Shown here: piece by piece, positions 1,605 to 33,812 of the stretch | Numbering within the stretch: the first letter of the stretch is position 1 | Layout: the number at the start of each line of letters is the position of its first letter | Origin: an uncultured Nitrospiraceae bacterium | GTDB lineage: Bacteria > Nitrospirota > Thermodesulfovibrionia > Thermodesulfovibrionales > UBA9159 | DNA: 34,394 bases | Direction of reading: 5' to 3' | NCBI GenBank assembly: GCA_947085305.1 | Contig: CAMTVV010000107.1 | Location: forward strand, 1 to 34,394 | Program-made: the position numbers and the translations under genes | The notes under the pieces: generated by a model | The model's database searches: none | What the model was told of the DNA's origin: nothing | What the model saw: the letters and a program-made list of their open reading frames with translations, nothing else

Positions 1605-1740
1605 TAATACAAACGCATTAAGTAAGTTGACATAATTCTTTAGTGTTGTCATTCCCGCTTGTCGGGAATCCTTCTTAAAGAAAGATGCCGAACAAGTCGG
1701 CATGACAGAAAATGTAACATTATTTATTGCGTTTGTATTA
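1605..1740. repeat. MITE-like element bounded by inverted repeats and containing two short GC hairpins
   Basis: Exact 13-bp inverted termini: TAATACAAACGCA at 1605-1617 and TGCGTTTGTATTA at 1728-1740, extending imperfectly to about 27 bp. Inside are hairpins ATTCCCG-cttgt-CGGGAAT and ATGCCGA-acaag-TCGGCAT, nested in TGTCAT...ATGACA. Confidence 0.6.
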
Positions 1741-1851
1741 GTTCATCGCTCATGGCGCATGAAAAAGCTCATGGCTCATAGTTCATTGCTCATGGTTTTT
1801 ACTATCAGCTATGAGCTATCAGCCAATTTGCTATGAGCTACTCTTGCTGAA
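1741..1851. repeat. Heptad-periodic inverted-repeat array (GCTCATG-type words)
   Basis: Left arm: gttcatc gctcatg gcgcatg (aaaaa) gctcatg gctcata gttcatt gctcatg. Right arm holds complementary words: tatcagc tatgagc tatcagc ... tatgagc. Lies between the convergent oppF-like and tlpA-like genes. Confidence 0.7.
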
Positions 1852-3122: not shown

Positions 3123-3296
3123 TCACAGCCGCACCAACGCGACGCCGGCGATACCCTTGAAATGTTTCTTGTCAAAGGTATGGATCTCGCTTGCTCCCTT
3201 TTCCTGAGCAAAAGCGGCGATCTAGGCATCCACAAGATCAATGCCTTTGGTCCGGTACCGCCTCAGGGCAGAACGGACTATCGTATCATCCGGGAC
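3123..3296 (-). pseudogene. PIN-domain (VapC-like) toxin remnant: C-terminal part only, with an in-frame TAG
   Basis: Manual minus-strand translation gives VPDDTIVRSALRRYRTKGIDLVDA*IAAFAQEKGASEIHTFDKKHFKGIAGVALVRL*. This matches the C-terminal PIN pattern (..DA.IAA.A......TFD..F). The N-terminal acidic-residue region is absent. Confidence 0.55.
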
Positions 3297-3531
3297 AGTA
3301 AGTCCCGGCGTATTCTTTTGCCTTCTTTCTTATATCCTCAAAGTCAGCTTGCTGCTGCTTGCCCTTCAGGACTCCCCTGAAATCCTGGAGCGTCTTGGCT
3401 GTTTTGACAACGAGCTTTTCGTCTTCTTTCTCAAAAACCACGATGCTGCCGGTCTGGATATGGAGCAAGTCCCGCACCTCTTTCGGCAGCGTGCTCTGCC
3501 CCTTGGATGTAACCTTTGCAAGCGCTGTCAT
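3286..3531 (-). CDS. AbrB/MazE/SpoVT-family antitoxin (VapB-like), now orphaned
   Basis: MTALAKVTSKGQSTLPKEVRDLL..GS.VVF is the swapped-hairpin AbrB-type motif. ATG at 3531 is preceded by GGAGAGGAAAG. The longer ORF start at 3705 has no support. Confidence 0.75.
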   Translation of the reverse strand: MTALAKVTSKGQSTLPKEVRDLLHIQTGSIVVFEKEDEKLVVKTAKTLQDFRGVLKGKQQQADFEDIRKKAKEYAGTYCPG

Positions 3532-3613: not shown

Positions 3614-4399
3614 GTGCATACCGTTGAGTCGCCAGAATCGATTTTGAAGTGTGGGTTAGCCGAGCTTTCCCTCGCATATTCCCACGTCCAGATCAGGACA
3701 TTCATGACCTATCTCTCCGAGCTGAAGAAATGGAACAAGGCGTACAACCTCACTGCCTTAAAAACGGACGAAGATATAATCGTAAAGCATTTCCTGGACT
3801 CGTTACTCTATCTTAAGGCAATACCGGAGGGTGAGGTGAGTGTTATGGATGTGGGAAGCGGCGCCGGGTTCCCGGGAATACCGATAAAGATTGTCAGGCC
3901 TGAGATTGCGATGTATCTTGTAGAGCCGTCGAGGAAGAAGGCGAGCTTCCTGCGCCATATCATCAGCGCCCTCGGACTTGAAAAGATTGAGGTTGTGGAG
4001 AAAAGAATTGAGGAGATCAAAGCATTGTCGGTCGACGTCGCGGTGACGAGGGCCCTGTTTGACATAAGGGATTTCTGCAGGAAGGCATTTCCCTTGCTAA
4101 AAGAAGGTGGAAGGCTTATTGTGAGCAAAGGCCCAAAGGTGAATGAAGAACTGAAAGCAGCAAAGAGGATGGATTATGAGTTATTGACCCTGACCTTGCC
4201 CCCTTCGAAGATAAAACGTTTTATCGTGGTGATTGCCAAAGGAGATCAAGAACCAAAAACAGCAGGAAAACTTAATCCAGCAAGGCTCGACAATGCACAA
4301 TCAAACAGCGCCGACGTATGCGTTAACGCTGAATGCCGCCTGCGAAAAGCCGGATGTAAAGGGTTCGAAGCATGTCCTGGATTTAAGTCAAGAGCCTGA
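3614..4399 (+). CDS. rsmG: 16S rRNA (guanine527-N7)-methyltransferase RsmG (GidB) with about 50-aa C-terminal extension
   Basis: SAM-binding motif VMDVGSGAGFPGIPIKI, then YLVEPSRKKASFL and VVEKRIEE as in GidB. Lies in the synteny rsmG-parA-parB. GTG start, so the exact start is uncertain. Confidence 0.85.
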   Translation: MHTVESPESILKCGLAELSLAYSHVQIRTFMTYLSELKKWNKAYNLTALKTDEDIIVKHFLDSLLYLKAIPEGEVSVMDVGSGAGFPGIPIKIVRPEIAMYLVEPSRKKASFLRHIISALGLEKIEVVEKRIEEIKALSVDVAVTRALFDIRDFCRKAFPLLKEGGRLIVSKGPKVNEELKAAKRMDYELLTLTLPPSKIKRFIVVIAKGDQEPKTAGKLNPARLDNAQSNSADVCVNAECRLRKAGCKGFEACPGFKSRA

Positions 4400-4412
4400 A
4401 AGCCTGCCGTCA

Positions 4413-4428
4413 TGTTCCACGTGGAACA
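4413..4428. promoter_or_regulatory. parS: parS centromere-like site (perfect 16-bp palindrome)
   Basis: TGTTCCACGTGGAACA matches the conserved chromosomal parS consensus tGTTNCACGTGAAACa. Located 14 nt after the rsmG stop. Confidence 0.85.
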
Positions 4429-4649
4429 TTTGCCCCTCCTTCCATTTTCTTGCCTTTTCACCATTTTTTGATACACTGGAAAATAAAACGGCAACCAGGA
4501 GGTTTATATGAGATATTTCTTTTTAATGATAGTTGTCCTGGCGTGGTCTATGAGAAGGCTGACAGGCGTTCATGGGAAGCGATGAAACTGTTTTTTGCCG
4601 AGATATTCAGATAGGGGAATGAGTATAAAAACACGAGGAGGTATTGGAC

Positions 4650-5045
4650 ATGGCAAGGGCTAAGAAGGTAAAACAACTCAGCTTTACCCTGCCGACGAGG
4701 GCGGGACTGCTTTCGGATGTGACCAGCGCCGTTGCAGACGCAAAGGTGAACATCACCGCAATATGCGCTTACGAGATGGCGAAAAACGCTTACTTCATGC
4801 TCGCCACAGACAGCGCTGCGAAGGCGAGGAAATCCCTTGCTTTCCTGAGGATAGGGATCGAAATAGAAGATGTTGTTGTGAAAATGCCTAACAAGGCGGG
4901 AGAGCTGCGGAAGGTGGCGAAAAGGATTGCGGACGCAGGGCTCAATATTGATTACATGTATGGAACTGCGGCAGCGGGAAAATCTTCAATGTGTGTCTTC
5001 AAAACATCAGATGATAAAAAGATGGTTAAGGTGATCAACAAATGA
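4650..5045 (+). CDS. ACT-domain-containing protein (tandem ACT-like halves)
   Basis: Two repeats of the ACT-like pattern (LPTRAGLLSDVTSAVADAKVNI... and MPNKAGELRKVAKRIADAGLNI...). ATG at 4650 lies 8 nt after GAGGAGG; the track start at 4644 is TTG. Confidence 0.65.
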   Translation: MARAKKVKQLSFTLPTRAGLLSDVTSAVADAKVNITAICAYEMAKNAYFMLATDSAAKARKSLAFLRIGIEIEDVVVKMPNKAGELRKVAKRIADAGLNIDYMYGTAAAGKSSMCVFKTSDDKKMVKVINK

Positions 5046-5419
5046 GGCAGGAGAATTTCCCGGAACAGGCTATAAAGAATAGTCACCGCTTATCGCGCCT
5101 GAGGGTTGTGGAGTTGGTCGTTCCAAATAGCACAGTGCAGCAGATTGACTATCTGTTCCACGCCCTTGCCCGGAAGCGCTCAGATCAGTTACACTTAATA
5201 ATATGAGCGTCAAACCCGCAGCCGAAAAAGAGTTCTGTATTCACCTCGAAAAGAGGGTGATCGAGAGGGTGAGCAGGGGGATTCCCATGGATATGAGCCC
5301 CGACCTTGTTCTCCGGGTATGCCATTTCCCTTTGCCTTCTCTGACGGGCATTCAGTGCCGTGTAGCTCTTGATGGCACTCCCTGCCCGCATAGCGGTCCC
5401 TACGGCAACAACTGAAAAA

Positions 5420-5435
5420 TGTTCCACGTGGAACA
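5420..5435. promoter_or_regulatory. parS: parS centromere-like site (second identical copy)
   Basis: Identical TGTTCCACGTGGAACA, 47 nt upstream of the parA ATG. Confidence 0.85.
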
Positions 5436-5482
5436 TTACGCAACCTTGCCCTGCTGCCCTTAACTCTGTTAGAATTACGGCA

Positions 5483-6262
5483 ATGGCCAATATCATTGCC
5501 ATCGTAAACCAGAAGGGCGGGGTCGGAAAGACCACCACTGCTGTTAATCTTGGGGCTTCCCTTGCCCTGGCTGAGAAGGACATCCTCCTGATAGATACGG
5601 ACCCGCAGGGCAATTCCACAAGCGGGCTCGGCATAAACCGTGATGAGATAAAGAAAAGTCTCTATGATGCCTATGCCGGCAGGTGCGTGCCTGACGAAGC
5701 TATTGTGTCCAGCGTCATGCAGCATCTGGATGTTATCCCTTCCACCGTGGATCTTCTCGGCGTAGAGGTGGAACTGGTGGGAAAAGAGGGCAGGGAAAGC
5801 ATTCTTTCCAGGATCATAGCCGACTTAAAAAAGGAGTATAAATACATACTTATCGATTGCCCTCCCTCTCTGGGCTTGCTCTCTCTGAATGCCCTTGTGG
5901 CAGCGAATTCGGTAATCGTGCCGGTTCAATGCGAATACTATGCCCTTGAGGGGCTCAGCCTTCTTACAAGGACTCTGCATCGAGTGAGAAATTCCTTTAA
6001 TCCCTCCCTTGAGATGAAGGGCATCCTTCTTACGATGTTTGATACAAGGAACAGTCTGTCAGAACAGGTTGCTCAGGAAGTGAGAAAGCACTTTGGAGAA
6101 CAGGTATTCGACACTGTGGTCCCCCGTAATGTAACCCTTGCCGAGGCGCCGAGCCACGGCAAACCCATAATCCTTTATGACGCCCGCTCCAGTGGGGCGC
6201 AGAGCTATCTATCCCTGGCAAAGGAGATTCTGAATGAAAACGGCGTTGGGCAGGGGTCTTGA
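5483..6262 (+). CDS. parA: Chromosome partitioning ATPase ParA/Soj
   Basis: N-terminus MANIIAIVNQKGGVGKTTTAVNL (deviant Walker A), ILLIDTDPQGN, ILIDCPPSLG. The upstream extension to 5369 would read through parS and is not homologous. Confidence 0.9.
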   Translation: MANIIAIVNQKGGVGKTTTAVNLGASLALAEKDILLIDTDPQGNSTSGLGINRDEIKKSLYDAYAGRCVPDEAIVSSVMQHLDVIPSTVDLLGVEVELVGKEGRESILSRIIADLKKEYKYILIDCPPSLGLLSLNALVAANSVIVPVQCEYYALEGLSLLTRTLHRVRNSFNPSLEMKGILLTMFDTRNSLSEQVAQEVRKHFGEQVFDTVVPRNVTLAEAPSHGKPIILYDARSSGAQSYLSLAKEILNENGVGQGS

Positions 6263-7061
6263 ATCCCTTCTCCCTGAAAAGACTCAGGAAATCATCAATA
6301 TTGACATCACCAGGATAATCCCCGGAGACCAGCAGCCAAGGAAGGTCTTTAAGGACACAGCCTTGCAGGACATGGCTGCTTCCATAAAGGAAAAAGGGGT
6401 ATTGCAGCCGATCATCGTTTCACGGACAGGGGACGGCGCCTTCAGGCTTATTGCCGGGGAGAGAAGGTGGAGGGCCTCATCCCTGGCAGGACTCAAGAAG
6501 ATACCCGCCATTGTGAAGGAAGTTTCTTCTGCAGATTCCCTCGAGATAGCGCTGATCGAAAACATCCAGAGGGAAGACCTCAATCCTATGGAGACGGCAG
6601 GGGCCTTTAATCGCCTGCTGAAGGACTTTAATCTCACGCAGGAGGAGCTTTCCGTAAAGGTCGGAAAGGACCGGGCAACCGTGGCAAATTATCTTCGGCT
6701 TTTGAAGCTCCCGGAGGAGATAAAGACATTCGTCAATGACGGCTCCCTGAGCATGGGCCATGCCCGCGCCATTCTCTCGATTGAAGGAAAGGCCAACCAG
6801 GTGGAGGCAGCAAGAAGGATAATCCATAAGAGCCTGAACGTCAGGGAGTCCGAAGCCCTTGCGAAAAAATGGAGCGCCGGGGCAAAAAAGAAGACAGTTC
6901 ACCATAAGAAGGATCCGCAGATAGAATCCCTTCAGGAGAAGCTTATCCGGAGCCTCGGCACAAAGGTCCGCATCCACCATAAAGGGAAAAAGGGGAGGAT
7001 AGAGATAGAATACTACTCTCTGGATGAACTGGACAGGCTCTTAGATATTTTGATTCAGTAA
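6234..7061 (+). CDS. parB: Chromosome partitioning protein ParB/Spo0J
   Basis: LGRGLESLLP N-terminal motif, ParB box GERRWRAS, HTH region LTQEELSVKVGKDRATVANYLRLL. Overlaps parA by 29 nt. Confidence 0.9.
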   Translation: MKTALGRGLESLLPEKTQEIINIDITRIIPGDQQPRKVFKDTALQDMAASIKEKGVLQPIIVSRTGDGAFRLIAGERRWRASSLAGLKKIPAIVKEVSSADSLEIALIENIQREDLNPMETAGAFNRLLKDFNLTQEELSVKVGKDRATVANYLRLLKLPEEIKTFVNDGSLSMGHARAILSIEGKANQVEAARRIIHKSLNVRESEALAKKWSAGAKKKTVHHKKDPQIESLQEKLIRSLGTKVRIHHKGKKGRIEIEYYSLDELDRLLDILIQ

Positions 7062-7066
7062 AAGAA

Positions 7067-8473
7067 CTATTTACCTATACAGAACTCGCTGAATATCCTG
7101 TTCAGTATATCTTCTGTCGTCACTGAACCAACGATCTCACCCAGTCTGTCCATGGCATCACGCATCTCCACTGCCACGACTTCAAGAGGCAAAGAAGCTG
7201 TTAAGGCGGAAGCTGCATTGCTGAGAGCATTGACGGCATTGTCAATGGCAACTTTGTGCCTGATATTGGTAACAATGACCCCTGCGCTTTCGTCAAAAAA
7301 ACCCCTGGCTTCTGATTTTTGATTCTTCTTCAAGGATACATCCAGTATCTTCTCCTTCAGCATATCCAGCCCCGCTTCCGTCTTAGCTGAGATTTTCAGT
7401 ATGTATTCAGAATATGGTCTGAGTGTTGATTCAAGATTCCTTTGATTCGGCAGGTCTGACTTGTTTATTGCGATGATGGCCTCTTTCCCCCTGATTTTTT
7501 CGAGGACCGCCATATCCTCATTTTTCAGCGAACAGGTCCCGTCAATGATCCCTATTACCAGATCTGCGTCATCAATGGCCCGGAGACTTCGTATAACGCC
7601 TTCTTTTTCGGCCATCTCATGGGTCTCCCTTATTCCTGCAGTATCCATAATCCTGGTGGGAAGACCATTGATATTGAGGTACTCCTCAAGAATATCCCTT
7701 GTCGTCCCTGCAATTTCAGTCACAATCGCCCTGTCTCTTTTCAGAAGTGCATTGAGCAGAGAAGACTTACCCACATTGGGTCTTCCCACAATGGCAACCT
7801 TAAGTCCCTCGCGGAAGAAACGGCCTTCTTCAAAGCTCTTTGAAAAGGCAAGAAGACTTTTTTCAATATCCCGAACTTCGTTCAGGATACTTTCCATTGA
7901 TGCAGGCTCGATCTCTTCTTCGGGAAAATCTATGTATGCCTCGATATGCGCGCACACAGATAGCAGCCTGTCCCTCAATCCGGTGATCTTTTCGGAAAGC
8001 CCTCCGGAAAGCTGCTCCAGCGCTACCCTTCCCGATTCTTCGGTCTTTGCCCTGATTAGGTCGATCACCGCCTCTGCCTGCGACAGATCAAGCCTGCCGT
8101 TCAGGAAGGCCCTTTTTGTGAACTCCCCTGGTTCTGCAAGCCTCGCTCCATGCTGCAGGACCAGCTCGAGGACCTTTCGCACGGCAAGGATGCCGCCATG
8201 GCAGTTTATCTCGACTACGTCTTCCTTCGTGTAGGTATGCGGCGCCTTCATCACTGCAACGAGTACTTCGTCAATGGTTGTTCCGGCTGAAGGGTTTTTT
8301 ATGAAGCCGTAAGTAAGGGTATGGGATTCCGATTCCTGGAGTTTTCTCCCTTTTGGAGATGAGAAGAGTTTCTCTACGATCGGCAGGGCGTCTTTCCCGC
8401 TCAGCCGCACAATACCAATGCCTCCCTCACCAAGGGGAGTGGAGATGGCTGCGATGGTGTCATCAAGAAACAC
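7067..8473 (-). CDS. mnmE: tRNA modification GTPase MnmE (TrmE)
   Basis: DTIAAISTP N-terminus, G-domain GRPNVGKSSLLN / DTAGIR / NKSDL, C-terminal FCIGK motif. Converges on parB with a 5-nt gap. Confidence 0.92.
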   Translation of the reverse strand: MFLDDTIAAISTPLGEGGIGIVRLSGKDALPIVEKLFSSPKGRKLQESESHTLTYGFIKNPSAGTTIDEVLVAVMKAPHTYTKEDVVEINCHGGILAVRKVLELVLQHGARLAEPGEFTKRAFLNGRLDLSQAEAVIDLIRAKTEESGRVALEQLSGGLSEKITGLRDRLLSVCAHIEAYIDFPEEEIEPASMESILNEVRDIEKSLLAFSKSFEEGRFFREGLKVAIVGRPNVGKSSLLNALLKRDRAIVTEIAGTTRDILEEYLNINGLPTRIMDTAGIRETHEMAEKEGVIRSLRAIDDADLVIGIIDGTCSLKNEDMAVLEKIRGKEAIIAINKSDLPNQRNLESTLRPYSEYILKISAKTEAGLDMLKEKILDVSLKKNQKSEARGFFDESAGVIVTNIRHKVAIDNAVNALSNAASALTASLPLEVVAVEMRDAMDRLGEIVGSVTTEDILNRIFSEFCIGK

Positions 8474-10693: not shown

Positions 10694-12070
10694 TTACGGA
10701 AAAATCTTCCCCGGGTTCAGGATGTTCTTCGGGTCAAAGAGTTTCTTGATCCCCTTCATCAGGGCAAGCTCGCTTTTCTTGAGCTCCATCCCTATATACG
10801 GCGCCTTAGTGAGCCCCACACCGTGTTCGCCGGATATGGTTCCGCCGAGGCTGAGGGTCAATTTGAAAATATCTCTGACAATGGCATCCGCTTTTCTGTA
10901 TTCCTCCTCATTGGATCTGTCGATCATCAGGTTTACATGGACGTTGCCGTCTCCTGCATGGCCGAAATTAACTATCTTAATCCCAGTATCTTCAGAGAGT
11001 CTCCTCAGGCTGGTGAGCATCTGAGGGATCCTGTCCCTTGGCACCACGATGTCCTCGCCTATCTTTCCCGGACTGATGTGATAGAGGGCAGGGGACACCC
11101 TTCGTCTGCACTCCCATAATCTGTTTCTTGCAGCCTCATCCTCAGCCATGCTCACATCAGCGCCCAGCTTCATGCAGATGTCTGCCACCTTTCCGGCCTC
11201 TTTCTTAATGGCCTCAGGATGTCCGTCCACCTCAATGAGAAGGAGGGCTTCCACGTTGTCAGGGAGGCCCAGAGGCTGGAACTTCTCGACGGCCTTTATG
11301 GCTTCCCTGTCCATGAACTCCAGGGTTCTCGGGATGATCCTTGAGGAAATTATCTGGGATACTGCCTTGCCGGAGGCCTCCAGGTCGGTAAACAGACAGA
11401 GGAGGGTGAGGATGTCCTCAGGGAGGGGAAGGAGCTTCAACCGTATCTTTGTCGCCACTGCCAGGGTGCCTTCAGACCCGACAAGGAGCCTCACAAGGTC
11501 ATAGCCCACCACTCCCTTATATGTTCTGACCCCGACATTGATAATATCTCCACCGGGAAGCACTGCCTCTATCTCCATGACATAATCTTTTGTAACGCCG
11601 TATTTCAAAGCCCTTGGACCCCCCGCATTTTCTGCCACGTTTCCGCCGATGGTGCAGAAATTCATACTGGCAGGGTCAGGAGGGTAAAAAAATCCGTGGT
11701 CTTCCACCTCCCTCTGCAGTCTGCCGTTAATGATCCCGGGCTCCACAAGCACTGTGAGGTTGCCTTTTTCAAGCTCCAGTATCCTGTTCATTTTTTCCAT
11801 GCTCAAAACCACAGAGCCTTTGAGCGGAACCGCTCCACCGGACATGCCTGTGCCGGCGCCACGAGGGACTACAGGTATTCCGTTTTCATAGGCGAACTTC
11901 ATGATCTGAGCCACATGCTCGGTGGTCTCCGGCCAGACGACAGCAGAAGGCGCCCCCTCAAGCCCGCTTGCATCAAAGCCATAGCATACGAGGTCTTCAG
12001 GGTTAGAGGAGCTTTTTATGTGAGGTAGCGCATCGAAGATGTTCATAATAATAGTCGTGACGCGTAACAT
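10694..12070 (-). CDS. FAD-linked oxidase (GlcD / D-lactate dehydrogenase family)
   Basis: FAD-binding PCMH-type region (VVPRGAGTGMSGGAVP) and C-terminal GGTISGEHGVGL motif. The first 8 codons (MLRVTTII) are encoded by a repeat element; the alternative ATG at 12046 (MNIFDAL...) may be the true start. Confidence 0.85.
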   Translation of the reverse strand: MLRVTTIIMNIFDALPHIKSSSNPEDLVCYGFDASGLEGAPSAVVWPETTEHVAQIMKFAYENGIPVVPRGAGTGMSGGAVPLKGSVVLSMEKMNRILELEKGNLTVLVEPGIINGRLQREVEDHGFFYPPDPASMNFCTIGGNVAENAGGPRALKYGVTKDYVMEIEAVLPGGDIINVGVRTYKGVVGYDLVRLLVGSEGTLAVATKIRLKLLPLPEDILTLLCLFTDLEASGKAVSQIISSRIIPRTLEFMDREAIKAVEKFQPLGLPDNVEALLLIEVDGHPEAIKKEAGKVADICMKLGADVSMAEDEAARNRLWECRRRVSPALYHISPGKIGEDIVVPRDRIPQMLTSLRRLSEDTGIKIVNFGHAGDGNVHVNLMIDRSNEEEYRKADAIVRDIFKLTLSLGGTISGEHGVGLTKAPYIGMELKKSELALMKGIKKLFDPKNILNPGKIFP

Positions 12071-12137
12071 GTAATGCGTAACCCGTGATTAACAAAAATC
12101 CCTGAACTCGTCACGCGTCACCTGTCACGTGTTACGG
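12055..12137. repeat. Heptad-periodic inverted-repeat element (CGTRAC-type words), 5 + 4 heptamers
   Basis: Sequence: tcgtgac gcgtaac atgtaat gcgtaac ccgtgat - 18 nt - tcgtcac gcgtcac ctgtcac gtgttac gg. The arms pair imperfectly, and the mismatches between arms are all transitions. Lies between the smc stop and the glcD-like start. Confidence 0.75.
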
Positions 12138-12142
12138 TCTTT

Positions 12143-15100
12143 CTAAGATTCCACAAGTTGCATTGAGATAACCTTCGATACCCCCGGCTCTTCCATGGTT
12201 ATCCCATAAATATAGTCAGCCGCCTCTATTGTTGCTCTGTTGTGAGTCACCACAATGAACTGTATCTTTCCTGCAAGCTCCCGGAGCATCCTCGCAAACC
12301 GGTCGATATTGGATTCATCCAGGGCGGCATCCACCTCGTCGAGGATACAGAGAGGGGACGGTTTTATGAGAAAACTTGCAAACAGAAGAGACAGTGCGGT
12401 AAGGGCCTTCTCTCCACCGGAAAGCAGAGTTATATTCTGGAGTTTCTTCCCCGGCGGTTGTGCTATAATGTCTATGCCGGAAGCGAGGATATTGTTTTCT
12501 TCCGTCAATACAAGTCCGGCCTTTCCTCCGCCGAAGAGAACGGAGAAAACCTCGGAAAACTTTTCATTGAGCTGCTCAAACGCATCCCTCAGTTTTTTCC
12601 GGGTCGTACTGTTTATCTTTGTTATCGCCTCCTCCAGCTCTGCAATGGATTTGTTGAGATCGTCCTGCTGTTGCGTGAGAAACTCATAACGGGTCTTCAA
12701 TTCTTCATATTCATCAAGGGAGGCGAGGTTCACCGGGCCCAGCTCCTGGATCTTTGTCCTTATCTCGGAGAGGCGTTCTTCGTCCTCCGGAGACACGGGT
12801 TCAGCCTCGAAGGTTGCAATCTCGACACCGTAATTCTGACTGATGCCTCCTGACAGGGCTTCGATCCTCAGCCGGTGTTCAGCCATGGAAACGTCCGCCT
12901 CACTGATCGCGGAGGTCAATGAATCCAGCCTGCTGCGATGTGATTTGGATTCCTGCTCTGCGCGGATGAGCTCCTCTGACTCGCTGCGGATGATCTCCCT
13001 GTTCTCCGTTATCACGGTTTTGAGGTTGTCGGCCTTCAGAACAAGTCCCTTGAGCTTGTCATTGTTCTTTTCGATCTCTTCGCTGCACTGCCTTATCCTT
13101 GATTCTATATCTGTTTTTTCCTTTGCCAGAATATCCTGCGTTTTAGCAAGGTCGGCAAGTGTTTCCACGGAAGATTCCAGCTCTTTTCTGATGGATTCTA
13201 TCCGCTCGCGGGATGAGTTCAGCGCTAATCTCAGCTCAGTGATGGATGCCCGTTCCGCTTCATAGCGCTCTTTGTTTTTCGCTATTTCATCCTGTATCGC
13301 GGTTACAAAGCGTTCTGCCCCGGTTTTTGTTGCCGTTATCCTTTCAGCCTCAGATTCTTTTTCCGAAGCGATTGCTTTCAGGGATTCCGTTTCCCTGAGG
13401 ATCTCCTCCTGTTCAATATTGAGAAAGGAGAGTTTGCGGCTTATCCTCTCTTTTTCCTCAATCCGGTTTTCAGCGGTTAATCTCAGGAGGGATATCTCTT
13501 TTTCCCGATGGATTATCGCCGACTCGATATCTTTCAGGGAAGCCAGCTTTTCCTTGTGAGACGTCTCCACGTTTTCTAATGTCTCCCCGAGGCGTTCCAT
13601 CTCATGTTTCTTCTGTTCAATGAGGGATTCCAGCTCCCGTATCTCCCTCTTCCTTTTCAGGATACCTTTCCCCTCGCCCACAGAGACCGCTCCTGACGGT
13701 TCCACTGTCTCGCCGTCCAGGGTCACAAAAGTGAAGTGGGAGTGCCCGGTCCCGAGTGTTTCCGGGAGAAGGGAAAACGCTGCATGGAGATCCTTTACCA
13801 CCAGTATATTGTTCAGGAGATCTTTCAGGACGGCCGAGACACCGTCGAGCTCAGAATGAATGCGCACAAGGTCGGTTGCTTTGCCTACGATGGAGTTGTT
13901 ACCGACGCTCCCCGCACGTTCAATGGGTTTATTCATTGCCGAGGGCGGCACATTGAGAGGGACAAAGGTTGTCCTTCTTATCCCCTTTCCCTTGAGGGAC
14001 GGGGCAGCGGCCGCGATCTCGTCAAAGGACTGAACGATAAAACCGTTTATCTTTTCGGATAACGCGTTCTCAATCGCCTTTTCGTATGCCTCGTCAACAT
14101 CAAGCGCCTCCGCGATGGACGCTATTATCCGAATATCCTCCACGAGGGATTCCCGGGAGAGGTCTTCATGCATTATCTCCCGGAGGGAGTCCAGCCGTGA
14201 AGATGCCGAAGCGAGTTCCTCACGGACCCGCGCTACCGCATTCCGCGCCTCTTCCCCTTTAGACCGGTATCCCTCTATTTCTGCCCTGACAATTTTCGTC
14301 TGTTCATTGAGGAGGAGGATTTCATTATTCTTACTGATGAGCGCTCCGTCGGTTTCCCGGATGCTCGTCTCTACCCGTGAGAGCTGTTCCTTCGCTGTTT
14401 CGGACTCCTTTAGTGTTGCCACATGTTTTCTTTCGAGGTTCTCCATGGATGTCAGGACCCTGCCCGTCTCGTTCCTGAGATGGCTTATTTCTTCCGCTAT
14501 CCTGAAGATCTCTTTCCTCTTCGCTTCTATGATCTCTTCCTTCTCGAAAAGGGATCTCTCCATGGCCTTGACAGCCTCGTTCTTCTCCGCCAGTTCCAGT
14601 TTGAGGCTGTCCATTTCAGACCCCAACTCTCTTTCCGTGGTTTCCAGTTCCTTTTTCCGGTTTTCTGTGGCAGCGATCTTCTGGATAACATCCGATTCCT
14701 GCAGGCTGAGCTTCGTAACGTACTCAGTAAGGTTGGCCCTTTCCGTGGTCGAAACCGCAATAATCCGCTCGGTCTCCGCGATTTCCCTTTCCAGGTCCCG
14801 GAGTTCCAGCGTGAGCGCATCAAGGGATTTCTCTTTATCAAGCAGTTCGATCCGCTTCGTCTCGATAGCGTTCTCGATTGTGCTCAGTGCTGCCCTGACC
14901 ACGGAGTCCGATTCCTTGAGGGAGGTGTAATCGGCCAGGATTTTGTCAAGGGAGTTTCTGAGATCCGAGTAATCCCTCTTTGCTATCTTCATCTCGATGG
15001 ATGTCATCTCAGCGGTGAGCTTCTTGTATCGTTCCGCCTTCCTGACCTGCCTGTCCAGGGAATTGATCTGCCGCTTCACCTCTGTGACGATGTCGTTCAC

Positions 15101-15676
15101 CCTCTGCAGGTTTATGCGGGAAGACTCAAGCTTTGAGAGCGCTTCGGCCTTTCTGGCCTTGTATTTCATGACGCCGGCAACTTCCTCGATGAGGAACCTT
15201 TTCTCCTGCGGCTTGGTATTGATTATCTCGCCTATTCTGCCCTGCTCCAGAATCGAATAACTTTTTATTTCAAGTCCCGTGTCAAGGAACAGGTCTTTGA
15301 TATCCTTGAGCCGGCACTGGTTCCGGTTGATCAGATATTCGCTCTCCCCCGAACGGTACAGTCTTCTGGCCACTGACGTGAGGCTCTGGGAGTCGCCATT
15401 GCCCTGCTCGGGGGAATCAAAGGACAGGAGGAGATTCACCTCGGACATTCCCCTCGGTTTTTTTGTGGCTGAACCGTTGAAAATGACCTCCTCCATCTTC
15501 TCCCCCCTCAGGCTTTTTGCGCTCTGCTCGCCCAGGACCCAGCGGAAGGAATCCACAATGTTGCTTTTTCCGGCGCCATTAGGACCCACGATACACGTGA
15601 TCCCGGGGTGAAGCTGGAAAGAGGTCTTTTCAGCAAAGGATTTGAAACCGATAAGCTCAATCTTTTCTATGCGCAT
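12143..15676 (-). CDS. smc: Chromosome segregation protein SMC
   Basis: 1177 aa. N-terminal Walker A GPNGAGKSN, long coiled coils, a central hinge, C-terminal signature LSGGEKALTALSL and Walker B LCILDEVDAALD. Confidence 0.95.
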   Translation of the reverse strand: MRIEKIELIGFKSFAEKTSFQLHPGITCIVGPNGAGKSNIVDSFRWVLGEQSAKSLRGEKMEEVIFNGSATKKPRGMSEVNLLLSFDSPEQGNGDSQSLTSVARRLYRSGESEYLINRNQCRLKDIKDLFLDTGLEIKSYSILEQGRIGEIINTKPQEKRFLIEEVAGVMKYKARKAEALSKLESSRINLQRVNDIVTEVKRQINSLDRQVRKAERYKKLTAEMTSIEMKIAKRDYSDLRNSLDKILADYTSLKESDSVVRAALSTIENAIETKRIELLDKEKSLDALTLELRDLEREIAETERIIAVSTTERANLTEYVTKLSLQESDVIQKIAATENRKKELETTERELGSEMDSLKLELAEKNEAVKAMERSLFEKEEIIEAKRKEIFRIAEEISHLRNETGRVLTSMENLERKHVATLKESETAKEQLSRVETSIRETDGALISKNNEILLLNEQTKIVRAEIEGYRSKGEEARNAVARVREELASASSRLDSLREIMHEDLSRESLVEDIRIIASIAEALDVDEAYEKAIENALSEKINGFIVQSFDEIAAAAPSLKGKGIRRTTFVPLNVPPSAMNKPIERAGSVGNNSIVGKATDLVRIHSELDGVSAVLKDLLNNILVVKDLHAAFSLLPETLGTGHSHFTFVTLDGETVEPSGAVSVGEGKGILKRKREIRELESLIEQKKHEMERLGETLENVETSHKEKLASLKDIESAIIHREKEISLLRLTAENRIEEKERISRKLSFLNIEQEEILRETESLKAIASEKESEAERITATKTGAERFVTAIQDEIAKNKERYEAERASITELRLALNSSRERIESIRKELESSVETLADLAKTQDILAKEKTDIESRIRQCSEEIEKNNDKLKGLVLKADNLKTVITENREIIRSESEELIRAEQESKSHRSRLDSLTSAISEADVSMAEHRLRIEALSGGISQNYGVEIATFEAEPVSPEDEERLSEIRTKIQELGPVNLASLDEYEELKTRYEFLTQQQDDLNKSIAELEEAITKINSTTRKKLRDAFEQLNEKFSEVFSVLFGGGKAGLVLTEENNILASGIDIIAQPPGKKLQNITLLSGGEKALTALSLLFASFLIKPSPLCILDEVDAALDESNIDRFARMLRELAGKIQFIVVTHNRATIEAADYIYGITMEEPGVSKVISMQLVES

Positions 15677-18698: not shown

Positions 18699-20159
18699 AT
18701 GTCGCATAATTATCCGAGATTGGTTATTGCCGGGCTGAAAGGCGGCTCGGGTAAGACGACACTGTCCCTCGGATTAGTCAGGGCTTTGAAGGAAAAAGGC
18801 CTGAAGGTTGTGCCCTTCAAAAAGGGCCCAGACTATATTGATGCGGGCTGGCTTGCCAGCGCTGCAGAACATCCCTGCTACAATCTTGACCCTTTTTTGG
18901 TCGGCAGTGACCGCTTGTTGTCTTCTTTTATCACCCATGCAGGGGATTCGGATATCGCCATTATTGAAGGGAACAGGGGACTGTATGACGGTATGGACGC
19001 AGAAGGGACATACAGCACTGCTGAAGTCGCAAAGCTCCTTCGGTCACCGGTTATTCTCATCGTTGATTGTGCGAAAGTCACCCGCACTGTTGCAGCGATG
19101 ATTCTCGGAGCACAGAGATTTGACCCTGAGATAATGGTCAGGGGCGTTGTTCTGAACCGGATAGCAGGGAGCAGGCATGAGTCAGTGATACGGGCATCCA
19201 TAGAAAAATACTGCGGTCTTCCGGTTCTGGGGGCAATCCCGAGAACCGATTCAGGGGAGTTTCCCGAACGGCATATGGGACTGCTGCCGCATCAGGAGCA
19301 TCCCGATACCGCGAAGGCTATTTCTTTTGTGGAAGAGATCGCCGGGAGGTATCTCGATCTCGACGGTATCCTGAAGATCGCAAGGAGCGTTGAACCATTA
19401 GAAAAAAGCCGTGACGAGTTATCCGTAACGCGTAACGAGTTAAATAATGAGGGTAGTGCGTCTATTGTTCATCACGTATCACGCGTTACGCGTCACGGAG
19501 TAAAAATCGGAGTGGTCAGGGATTCTGCTTTTCAGTTCTATTACCCGGAGAACATTGAAGAGATGAAAGGATGCGGGGCTGATATCGTCGAGTTCAGCGC
19601 ACTTTCAGAGAGGCAGTTGCCTGATATCGATGCCCTCTATATAGGGGGTGGTTTCCCGGAAACTCATGCTATCTCACTTGCAGAAAATACCCGGTTCCGT
19701 GACTCTCTCCGGAACGCCATCGAGGAAGGTCTGCCGGTATATGCTGAGTGCGGCGGGCTTATGTACCTGGGTGAAGGACTTTTGCTCGATGACAGGATAT
19801 ACCCCATGGCGGGCATCTTTCCTTTAGTCTTTTCCCTCGAAAGAAAACCACAGGCCCACGGATACTCTGTTGCGGAAGTGGTGAAGAAAAACCCCTTTTA
19901 TCCTGAGGGAACGATTTTAAAAGGGCATGAGTTCCATTATTCGAAGCCGTGTAATGTCCTTGAGGAGACGAACGGGTTTTCGTATGCCTTCAGGATGAAA
20001 CGGGGACAGGGGATATACGAAAAGATGGACGGCATCTGTTATAAGAATGTCCTTGCCACATATACACACCTCCACGCCTTTGGCGCGCCTGAGTGGGTTG
20101 AAGGTCTGGTCAAAAAGGCCGCAGAATTCAGGGAAAGGAAGGCGTTACGAAAAGTCTGA
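18699..20159 (+). CDS. dsrN: DsrN (cobyrinic acid a,c-diamide synthase homolog; siroheme amidase)
   Basis: N-terminal CbiA-type P-loop GLKGGSGKTT. C-terminal glutamine amidotransferase domain (VRDSAFQFYYPEN, YIGGGFPE, AECGGLMYL). Position after dsrABD. Carries a 90-nt repeat element in the interdomain linker. Confidence 0.88.
   Translation: MSHNYPRLVIAGLKGGSGKTTLSLGLVRALKEKGLKVVPFKKGPDYIDAGWLASAAEHPCYNLDPFLVGSDRLLSSFITHAGDSDIAIIEGNRGLYDGMDAEGTYSTAEVAKLLRSPVILIVDCAKVTRTVAAMILGAQRFDPEIMVRGVVLNRIAGSRHESVIRASIEKYCGLPVLGAIPRTDSGEFPERHMGLLPHQEHPDTAKAISFVEEIAGRYLDLDGILKIARSVEPLEKSRDELSVTRNELNNEGSASIVHHVSRVTRHGVKIGVVRDSAFQFYYPENIEEMKGCGADIVEFSALSERQLPDIDALYIGGGFPETHAISLAENTRFRDSLRNAIEEGLPVYAECGGLMYLGEGLLLDDRIYPMAGIFPLVFSLERKPQAHGYSVAEVVKKNPFYPEGTILKGHEFHYSKPCNVLEETNGFSYAFRMKRGQGIYEKMDGICYKNVLATYTHLHAFGAPEWVEGLVKKAAEFRERKALRKV
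19409..19498. repeat. Heptad-periodic inverted-repeat element (CGTRAC-type) inserted in frame within dsrN
   Basis: Sequence: ccgtgac gagttat ccgtaac gcgtaac gagttaa - 25 nt - tcatcac gtatcac gcgttac gcgtcac gg. Terminal 8-bp perfect stem CCGTGACG/CGTCACGG. Length 90 nt, which is 30 codons. Same word family as 12055-12137. Confidence 0.75.
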
Positions 20160-33568: not shown

Positions 33569-33642
33569 TGGGGAGTCGTCCAATGGCAGGACGGCAGACT
33601 CTGGATCTGCTTATAGGGGTTCGAATCCTCTCTCCCCAGCCA
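33569..33642 (+). tRNA. tRNA-Gln (anticodon CTG), CCA encoded
   Basis: Manual cloverleaf: acceptor TGGGGAG/CTCCCCA, D arm GTCC/GGAC, anticodon arm GCAGA-CT CTG GA-TCTGC, T arm AGGGG-TTCGAAT-CCTCT, discriminator G, CCA. Confidence 0.9.
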
Positions 33643-33726
33643 TTTTAGCCGTCAGCTTTCAGCGGTCAGCTTTTAGCCGGATGGTTTAAGTTTTTTGCTG
33701 ATTGCTGAATGCTAATAGCTGATTGC
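33643..33726. repeat. Heptad-periodic inverted-repeat element (TCAGC-type words), 5 + 4 heptamers, between two tRNA genes
   Basis: Sequence: ttttagc cgtcagc tttcagc ggtcagc ttttagc - 19 nt - gctgatt gctgaat gctaata gctgatt gc, followed by TTTTTTT. Begins at the nucleotide after the CCA of tRNA-Gln. Confidence 0.75.
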
Positions 33727-33736
33727 TTTTTTTATT

Positions 33737-33812
33737 GGTCCCATCGTCTAGTGGCCTAGGACGTGGCCCTCTCAAGGCTAAAACACGGGTTCGACTCCCG
33801 TTGGGACCGCCA
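33737..33812 (+). tRNA. tRNA-Glu (anticodon CTC), CCA encoded
   Basis: Manual cloverleaf: acceptor GGTCCCA/TGGGACC, D arm GTCT/GGAC, anticodon arm TGGCC-CT CTC AA-GGCTA, T arm ACGGG-TTCGACT-CCCGT, discriminator G, CCA. Confidence 0.9.

Follow-up and report, generated by a model that had tools for sequence, protein, structure and literature searches.

Paired heptanucleotide arrays as dispersed hairpin repeats at gene ends in a Thermodesulfovibrionales contig and its relatives

In most bacterial genomes no long simple repeat is commoner than the heptanucleotide, and an explanation based on the polymerase footprint has been proposed (cited in the review of heptamer direct repeats by MacGregor 2015, PMC4679880). 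Xanthomonas campestris and X. axonopodis carry 183-186 arrays of the heptamer GGGAATC per genome, mostly with four units, and 70-75 pairs of arrays per genome converge on opposite strands and can form stem-loops (Rehm et al. 2015, PMC4692102). These arrays are dispersed and mostly intergenic, most of them are transcribed, and 83% of positions are kept between the species, array length being variable. They have no link to insertion sequences (IS), the authors left their function unexplained, and with their GGG run they form G-quadruplexes in vitro (PMC4692102). In Geobacter metallireducens, the paired multicopy sites of classes 3 and 1 include eight opposite-strand pairs of five tandem heptanucleotides (MTYCTGA) and 24 pairs of four tandem octanucleotides; the distance between partners varies, the pairs are intergenic, for example between proB and proA, and Aklujkar et al. 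guessed that they are sites for IHF/HU or for global regulators (Aklujkar et al. 2009, PMC2700814). Here we describe four elements of this kind, A to D, in a contig from an uncultured Nitrospiraceae bacterium (CAMTVV010000107.1); the window, in what follows, is this entire 34.4-kb contig of 34,394 nucleotides. The class to which they belong consists of two convergent arrays of about three to six tandem heptanucleotides built on one word, so that each strand is able to fold into a long, imperfect hairpin.

The window elements resemble the Xanthomonas pairs in being convergent 7-nt arrays, and the class resembles them in where its members lie (in Xanthomonas 16% are found between convergent genes and 7-8% between divergent ones, PMC4692102; among the 96 intergenic copies counted here the shares are 18% and 8%), and the octanucleotide pairs of Geobacter match 8-mer-periodic variants found in relatives of the window. 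They differ from the former in phylum, in the presence of several words within 34 kb and in the lack of a G run; the words of the Geobacter sites, known from supplementary alignments alone, are also different. Because GGG runs are absent from the window words (CGTRAC, TCAGC and GCTCATG), quadruplex formation is not the shared property: membership in the G-quadruplex heptamer class (GGGNATC type) was excluded on this ground, and quadruplexes are excluded as the common denominator of the class as a whole. The designs from Xanthomonas, Geobacter and cyanobacteria are one widespread architecture, present also in Nitrospirota, Desulfobacterota and many uncultured lineages, and what is new here is the lineage and the words that are not G-rich. 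A first-pass annotation of the window, made from the letters alone, had set the elements apart from known repeat organisations, which was overstated, since paired heptamer arrays were known from Xanthomonas (PMC4692102) and G. metallireducens (PMC2700814). A search of the literature library used here returned no paper linking heptanucleotide repeats with Nitrospirae or Thermodesulfovibrio.

The same annotation had named the STRR of heterocystous cyanobacteria as the nearest analogy. This pointed in the right direction: STRR are related tandem heptamer arrays which, like the window elements, come in several word families per genome, lie mostly between genes and are tolerated within them. In 1997 Vioque reportedly described STRR heptamers within the cyanobacterial RNase P RNA gene. 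The STRR words differ from those of the window. In cyanobacterial RNase P RNA, STRR heptamers lengthen helix P12, a likeness to the insertions, nested or in loops, of relatives of the window. Unlike the window elements, STRR are usually described as single direct arrays, and they belong to another lineage; Nostoc has few inverted heptamer pairs (Rehm et al. 2015, PMC4692102). STRR membership was rejected because the host is, by protein matches, a member of Nitrospirota/Thermodesulfovibrionales and not a heterocystous cyanobacterium.

REP, BIME and REPIN sequences are likewise dispersed hairpin repeats, situated mainly between unidirectional and convergent genes, often as inverted dimers and sometimes within genes, and they have been proposed to act in mRNA stability and in termination. 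REP units, however, measure 20-40 nt, carry a GTAG or CGTC tag on stems of 8-9 bp and lack a 7-nt period inside the unit, whereas the arms in the window are 28-35 nt long, periodic and free of an unpaired tag. Membership in the CGTC-tagged REP was rejected, as the family description by Di Nocera does not fit the window elements. RAYT transposases are associated with the GTAG type. Rickettsia palindromic elements (RPE) are families of about 100-150 nt that lie in frame in protein genes and show no heptad periodicity. Their likeness is to element B and to the heptad linkers of the protein DsrN (about 16 of about 70 lineages), where palindromic or periodic DNA is also carried in frame in a permissive protein part.

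The elements were detected with a word-blind search. It asks for two 28-nt arms, complementary at 18/28 positions or more and separated by 0-60 nt, whose summed lag autocorrelation amounts to at least 24/42. Exactly four loci of the window came out at lag 7 (1737-1834, 12051-12141, 19407-19508 and 33642-33732), and none at lags 5, 6, 8, 9 and 10. The mean in 40 dinucleotide-preserving shuffles was 0.025 loci per window, and a laxer setting (21-nt arms, three units) added no locus in the window. When periods 4-12 were compared, period 7 alone reached 20/28 lag matches. Tandem Repeats Finder reports period-7 arrays in elements B, C and D, and the inverted arms of the same word, present at all four loci in the word-blind search, were recovered for B and D by a separate inverted-repeat search as well. 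The four loci of the first-pass annotation are therefore real, with unit counts that agree with the sequence, and what they have in common is, as it had stated, geometry rather than sequence. Their parts are as follows.

Element A, 12056..12138, 83 nt: 5 units, 18-nt spacer, 4 units, then GT
Element A, left arm, 12056-12090: CGTGACG, CGTAACA, TGTAATG, CGTAACC, CGTGATT
Element A, spacer, 12091-12108, and right arm, 12109-12138: CGTCACG, CGTCACC, TGTCACG, TGTTACG, GT
Element B, 19409..19498, 90 nt: 5 units, 25-nt spacer, 4 units, with the CGTRAC word of element A
Element B, parts: left arm 19410-19444, spacer 19445-19469, right arm 19470-19497
Element C, 33643..33726: word TCAGC/GCTGA; 5 units, 18/19-nt spacer, 4 units
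Element C, parts: left arm 33643-33677, spacer about 33678-33695, right arm 33696-33726, then T7 at 33727-33733
Element D, the larger variant, 1741..1851: word GCTCATG/CTATGAGC; 7 left units broken by AAAAA, and a looser right arm

Element A had been placed at 12055-12137, one base too early. All four elements fold better than shuffled sequence on either strand (z -3.2 to -5.1); element A reaches -28 to -31 kcal/mol (z -3.2/-3.5) and element D a z of -5.1. At the gathering score of Rfam 15 the two tRNAs flanking element C match, and none of the four elements does. The arm-to-arm mismatches of element A had been described as transitions throughout, and some of them as wobble pairs hinting at RNA. 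Among its outer 27 pairs, six of seven mismatches are of the transition type (3 G.T and 3 A.C) and one is T.C. The 3:3 split of G.T and A.C favours neither RNA strand, so a strand preference read from wobble pairs is ruled out, and element B shows no net covariation that would revive the hint.

The four loci behave like dispersed hairpin repeats that are prone to slippage and lodge at the ends of genes, with an architecture already known from Xanthomonas and Geobacter. Downstream of a gene or tRNA they fill nearly all of the spacer, and they are found inside genes only in a permissive linker. Element A fills the 96-nt gap between the SMC stop and the glcD start; element B lies in frame inside dsrN, a position that the first-pass annotation had missed, and its 30 codons belong to the linker between the CbiA and GATase_3 domains; element C fills the whole spacer from tRNA-Gln to tRNA-Glu; and element D lies between a convergent pair of genes, for an ABC-transporter ATPase (plus strand) and an AhpC/TSA protein (minus strand). 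Each genome carries several word families, and copies of one family occur at unrelated sites. There are two CGTRAC copies in the 34-kb window and three in about 36 kb of a sister genome. Element D is directly adjoined by a non-periodic palindromic repeat (TGTTGTCATTCCCGCTTGTCGGGAATCC...GCCGAACAAGTCGGCATGACAGA) at window 1643-1709, within an inverted repeat (1605-1633 / 1712-1740).

The most direct view of how these elements come and go is given by the tRNA spacer that holds element C, compared here with the same spacer in relatives, whose loci carry L numbers.

tRNA-Gln(CTG), 33569..33642, plus strand; element C starts directly past its CCA end
tRNA-Glu(CTC), 33737..33812, plus strand; 10 nt beyond element C
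Spacer in the window: TCAGC hairpin, 94 nt
Spacer in L246 (same genome as L081): CGTRAC hairpin, 99 nt
Spacer in L245 (10806-11235): open reading frame (ORF) of family PF05635 between 11-bp inverted ends
Spacer in L247 and L248: GAT alone, 3 nt

Within about 10-20% divergence, then, the same site is empty, filled or occupied by another family, and copies are gained, lost and swapped at fixed spacers among close relatives. The L246 hairpin aligns with element B from end to end (74/97, 76%), including an AAAAGAC leader that is also present at element A, and the CGTRAC family thus has copies at three unrelated sites. The third kind of occupant, in L245, is an ORF of 114 residues from the '23S rRNA intervening sequence protein' family, with ends ACAGATAGAGA / TCTCTATCTGA, the last pair of which is mismatched, and short periodic tracts. 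The idea that this spacer is a heptad hairpin whose loop contains a gene was considered and rejected: there is only an 11-bp outer inverted repeat, and the periodic tracts are not complementary.

These spacers bear on the proposal that the elements arise repeatedly in place, a gene-end hairpin expanding by 7-nt slippage that is mirrored on the other arm by intrastrand templated repair, so that the shared geometry would stem from a mutational bias and not from common descent or mobility. The abundance of heptanucleotide repeats in most bacteria (cited in PMC4679880) would suit such an origin, as would the occurrence of different words, and even different periods (7 and 8), at one site in relatives, the slippery registers of the arms and a G-first chirality that ordinary hairpins share (see below). 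The empty tRNA spacer, however, is only 3 nt long and holds no seed hairpin, which rules out local expansion there, and the alignment of the L246 hairpin with element B, leader included, indicates that it was copied from elsewhere. The same words also recur within a genome and across phyla far above the expectation for independent origins. We regard local origin as very unlikely to explain the class.

The spacer between SMC and glcD, which holds element A, also differs among relatives.

glcD-like FAD-linked oxidase gene, 10694..12046, minus strand; conserved start ATG 12046, the longest ORF reaching 12070 within element A
SMC gene, 12143..15676, minus strand; stop codon 4 nt from element A, upstream of it on the minus strand

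In L087 this spacer contains a decayed copy of element A, in L085 CGTRAC arms, likewise decayed, whose loop encloses a hairpin of 8-mer periodicity, in L088 another palindromic repeat instead, and in L084 a plain 27 nt with no element. The L085 insertion (3230-3335) has a period of 8 nt (GTATCAGA / TTTGACAC) and makes a hairpin within a hairpin; twelve other 8-mer-periodic hairpins were noted in the 80 dsrN loci described below. The repeat that fills the L088 spacer is an approximately 80% identical copy of the palindrome beside element D. Element A was said to supply the start of the longest glcD ORF, and this is correct, with the ATG at 12070 inside the element; the start conserved in relatives is 12046, where the N-terminus MNI(L/F)DALPH is kept in L081, L084, L085 and L088. 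The longest ORF therefore gains 8 false codons. Paired heptad hairpins mislead gene calls in this way, and extended or split calls are found in relatives too.

Element A itself has been strikingly well preserved. In L081, whose DsrN is 89% identical, the spacer with element A (12047-12142) is identical at 95/96 positions, with loop and arms of the element both unchanged, whereas elsewhere glcD is 90.3%, SMC 89.3% and another intergenic region 89.5% identical to the window, and 20-23% of third codon positions differ. Between 12050 and 12149 there are 2 differences, against 5-8 per 50 nt in the adjoining coding DNA (P about 3e-4 at the average rate). The dip in divergence is limited to element A, and it is not a recombination tract. 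To judge from this comparison, at least one copy, element A, appears to be held by selection.

Element B provides a different picture, in the linker of a protein.

dsrN, CbiA/CobB-like amidase gene of the dsrABDN cluster, 18699..20159, plus strand; hosts element B
DsrN domains: CbiA, residues 8-193; GATase_3, residues 269-462

Seven relatives, the most distant with about 70% identity in DsrN, possess the element, with orthologous copies in L081, L242, L086, L087, L243 and L244. Its divergence between the window and L081 is 10%, as in its surroundings. The check for compensatory changes that had been proposed for the elements found no net covariation in seven orthologues of B, and selection on an RNA structure in it is unsupported. 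We read element B as what is probably a tolerated relic.

The linker has taken up heptads more than once. Lag 7 is the strongest period in the DsrN linker of about 16 of about 70 lineages, with words that differ, and a 7-nt period is unexpected for coding DNA. Hairpin-type linkers are present in L001 (TAGGC) and L011 (GGGATTA), and in L073 a direct heptad array encodes the tandem peptide QQPVTSN, a 7-residue repeat. Across lineages, the interdomain linker (window 19398-19517 and equivalents in L001-L088) ranges from about 20 to about 70 residues. An additional insert was noted upstream of the heptads in L244 (relative P0022, about 1310-1375), with the motif GGGACAGTCCC twice, which extends this DsrN to 519 residues. 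Because of heptad inserts, DsrN and proteins like it look more variable than they are.

The class extends well beyond these relatives. Eighty dsrN loci drawn from GTDB (1.33 Mb; Nitrospirota, Desulfobacterota and a few others) contain 36 hairpin arrays at lag 7; lags 6 and 8 gave 6 and 12. Some words recur across phyla (GGTTCAA, GGGATCA, GGTGTCA, TAGGCNA and GAGTTCG). A Desulfobacterales metagenome-assembled genome (MAG; L080) has two hairpins with the word pair of element D, GCTCATA/TATGAGC, a deltaproteobacterial MAG has the element C-type word GGTCAGC/GCTGAAA, and some relatives carry GGGATCA or GGGATTA hairpins. A metagenome scan for the inverted CGTGAC design, with at least 3+3 units, gave at least 120 contigs, 80 of which range in GC content from 34 to 74%; single samples contain several copies with non-periodic inner stems in common and variable loops. 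The same inverted pattern had 0 matches in IMG/VR, where a 4-unit direct pattern had 33, mostly plain tandem arrays.

The larger collection also shows that arm length is not fixed. The first-pass annotation had proposed a constant 5 + 4 layout; among 82 CGTGAC-type elements (80 from metagenomes plus elements A and B) the modal layout is 4+4 (24/82), with 5+4 in 6/82, and arms in other genomes have about 2 to 6 units. A separate family was seen in the metagenome contigs L134, L140, L162 and L191, consisting of near-perfect palindromes of about 100 nt (GGGGACATTTGACACGTGACATGTGACGCGTGACGTTTGACATCC...) with (GACNNGT)n arms; the flanks differ in the four contigs, which come from three samples (two contigs from one), and the family looks multi-copy.

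Such behaviour could be that of purely selfish elements resembling MITEs (miniature transposable elements with inverted repeats) or REPINs, mobilised in trans by a transposase encoded elsewhere and found where insertion does no harm. Presence, absence and replacement at identical sites in close relatives speak for this account, together with paralogous copies at unrelated sites, families that are multi-copy within a sample, the hairpin nested in a hairpin in L085 and the decay of element B and of the L087 copy of A. The suggestion in the first-pass annotation to look for a RAYT-like gene had a mixed outcome. There is no Y1 transposase in the window, but a Y1_Tnp (IS200-like/RAYT-like) gene with a C-terminal helix-turn-helix adjoins glcD in L085 (about 715-1586), which could be counted in favour of a selfish origin; no heptad arrays were seen at its flanks.

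Several further observations speak against it. Filled and empty sites (SMC-glcD and tRNA spacers) show no target-site duplication and no fixed terminal tag, and in 2.6 Mb of loci no transposase is flanked by heptad arms; MITE membership was rejected on these grounds. The tagged REP families of Di Nocera, with their short stems, are unlike these elements, no IS association was found in Xanthomonas (PMC4692102), and element A is more conserved than the coding DNA beside it. A purely selfish nature is, on balance, unlikely, though we would still give it some weight.

Placement and internal register offer a further view of the class. Among 96 intergenic copies, 71 lie in tandem, 17 in convergent (18%) and 8 in divergent (8%) spacers; divergent spacers are under-used relative to a background of 19% (8/96, p = 0.004). 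Gaps between elements and neighbouring genes are usually 3-30 nt. The four window elements comprise one in a tandem spacer, one between tRNAs, one in a convergent spacer and one in a coding linker. In the best register 19-20 of 28 positions pair, and 15-19 still do so once the arms are displaced by 7 or 14 nt. The arms are therefore complementary by word and not heptad by heptad, which fits arrays that keep slipping.

The G-rich arm is the 5' one in 30/35 elements (p = 2e-5), and the bias is identical on either strand. We considered this chirality as a hallmark of the class and ruled it out, as ordinary perfect hairpins in the same loci (L001-L088 plus the window; at least 10 bp, non-periodic) have the same bias (72:29 among the skewed cases). 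In clear bidirectional terminators with an A-tract and a T-tract, the G-rich arm was 5' in a ratio of 19:5. A/T tracts are enriched beside the elements, both at low GC (52% vs 22%) and at high GC (20% vs 5.5%).

The word-level match of the arms, with registers shifted by 7 or 14 nt nearly as good, would also be expected if the arrays are double-stranded DNA sites, in which each heptad accommodates a small dimeric protein that polymerises on 7-bp repeats. Alternatively, a nucleoid protein would occupy the two arrays together; in either case the capacity to form a hairpin would be a by-product of their convergent arrangement. The seventh base of the units is free, and loop and arms of element A are both conserved, which such sites would explain. 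Heptads of 7 bp (WATCACW), both direct and inverted, are bound by the omega repressor of inc18 plasmids, and the CATCACG units of element B and L086 resemble this word. The guess of IHF/HU-type regulator sites for the Geobacter pairs (PMC2700814) points the same way. However, three unrelated words in 34 kb, and dozens across genomes, would need many dedicated proteins, and the elements are depleted in divergent, promoter-bearing spacers, where operators are expected. In addition, metagenome copies keep complementary non-periodic inner stems with changes on both sides, and in the window the elements have no candidate protein, of the ribbon-helix-helix or another type, linked to them. We consider binding sites a distinctly unlikely basis for the class, less so than local origin.

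The explanation we favour combines slippage, copying and an RNA-level role. Arrays would gain and lose units, and change register, through 7-nt slipped-strand events, and whole hairpins would be copied into new gene-end sites by a route that involves no nearby transposase. The elements would then be transcribed along with the upstream gene, and the stem-loop could serve as operon or 3'-end punctuation, for example as an exonuclease barrier or a processing site, as in REP/BIME. Most copies would be tolerated passengers, and some, such as element A, would be held by selection. We infer that the most economical function would be one of the RNA within operons, where it would form a barrier at 3' ends or a site of processing. 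As a whole, this explanation (the repeat class together with slippage, copying and punctuation) has in our estimate a probability of roughly 0.5.

A number of points weigh against it. The conservation of element A comes from one genome pair, and for element B the covariation term is positive, that is, penalising, with broken pairs as numerous as compensated ones across the seven orthologues. The seventh base of the units is usually mismatched, which is not expected from selection for stem stability alone. In a relative only 3 nt separate the two tRNA genes that flank element C, and a strong barrier at this place would do harm. Neither a target-site duplication nor a terminal tag came to light when filled and empty sites were compared, and the 2.6 Mb of loci yielded no transposase flanked by heptad arms. 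Finally, A/T tracts in tandem spacers are downstream of the element in 7 cases and upstream in 8, and 53/71 have no tract. Because the tracts are not oriented with transcription, the elements are not classic terminators; a hairpin-plus-U terminator was ruled out on this basis, and a simple terminator scan flagged none of the four window loci.

In a broader form, the elements might be cross-phylum mobile palindromes without a transposase, spread by template-switch copying that slippery 7-nt registers ease, into gene-end spacers, tRNA 3' ends, hairpin loops and protein linkers, a subset (element A) having been recruited for conserved operon punctuation. This we offer as a speculative and rather doubtful extension. 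For movement and function alike, the tRNA spacer that is filled, replaced or empty, the conserved element A and the recurrently invaded DsrN linker provide test cases.

The setting of the elements is that of a sulfate reducer. Top protein matches of the contig are to uncultured Nitrospirota/Thermodesulfovibrionales, and it carries the dsr locus, with dsrA, dsrB, dsrD and the CbiA-like dsrN followed by the remaining dsr cluster. No transposases are present among the window genes. Upstream of the dsr genes are SMC, the glcD-like oxidase, mnmE, parAB and rsmG. Since rsmG (gidB), parA, parB and mnmE are clustered at 3614-8473 in the window, with SMC close by, the contig probably lies near the chromosomal replication origin.

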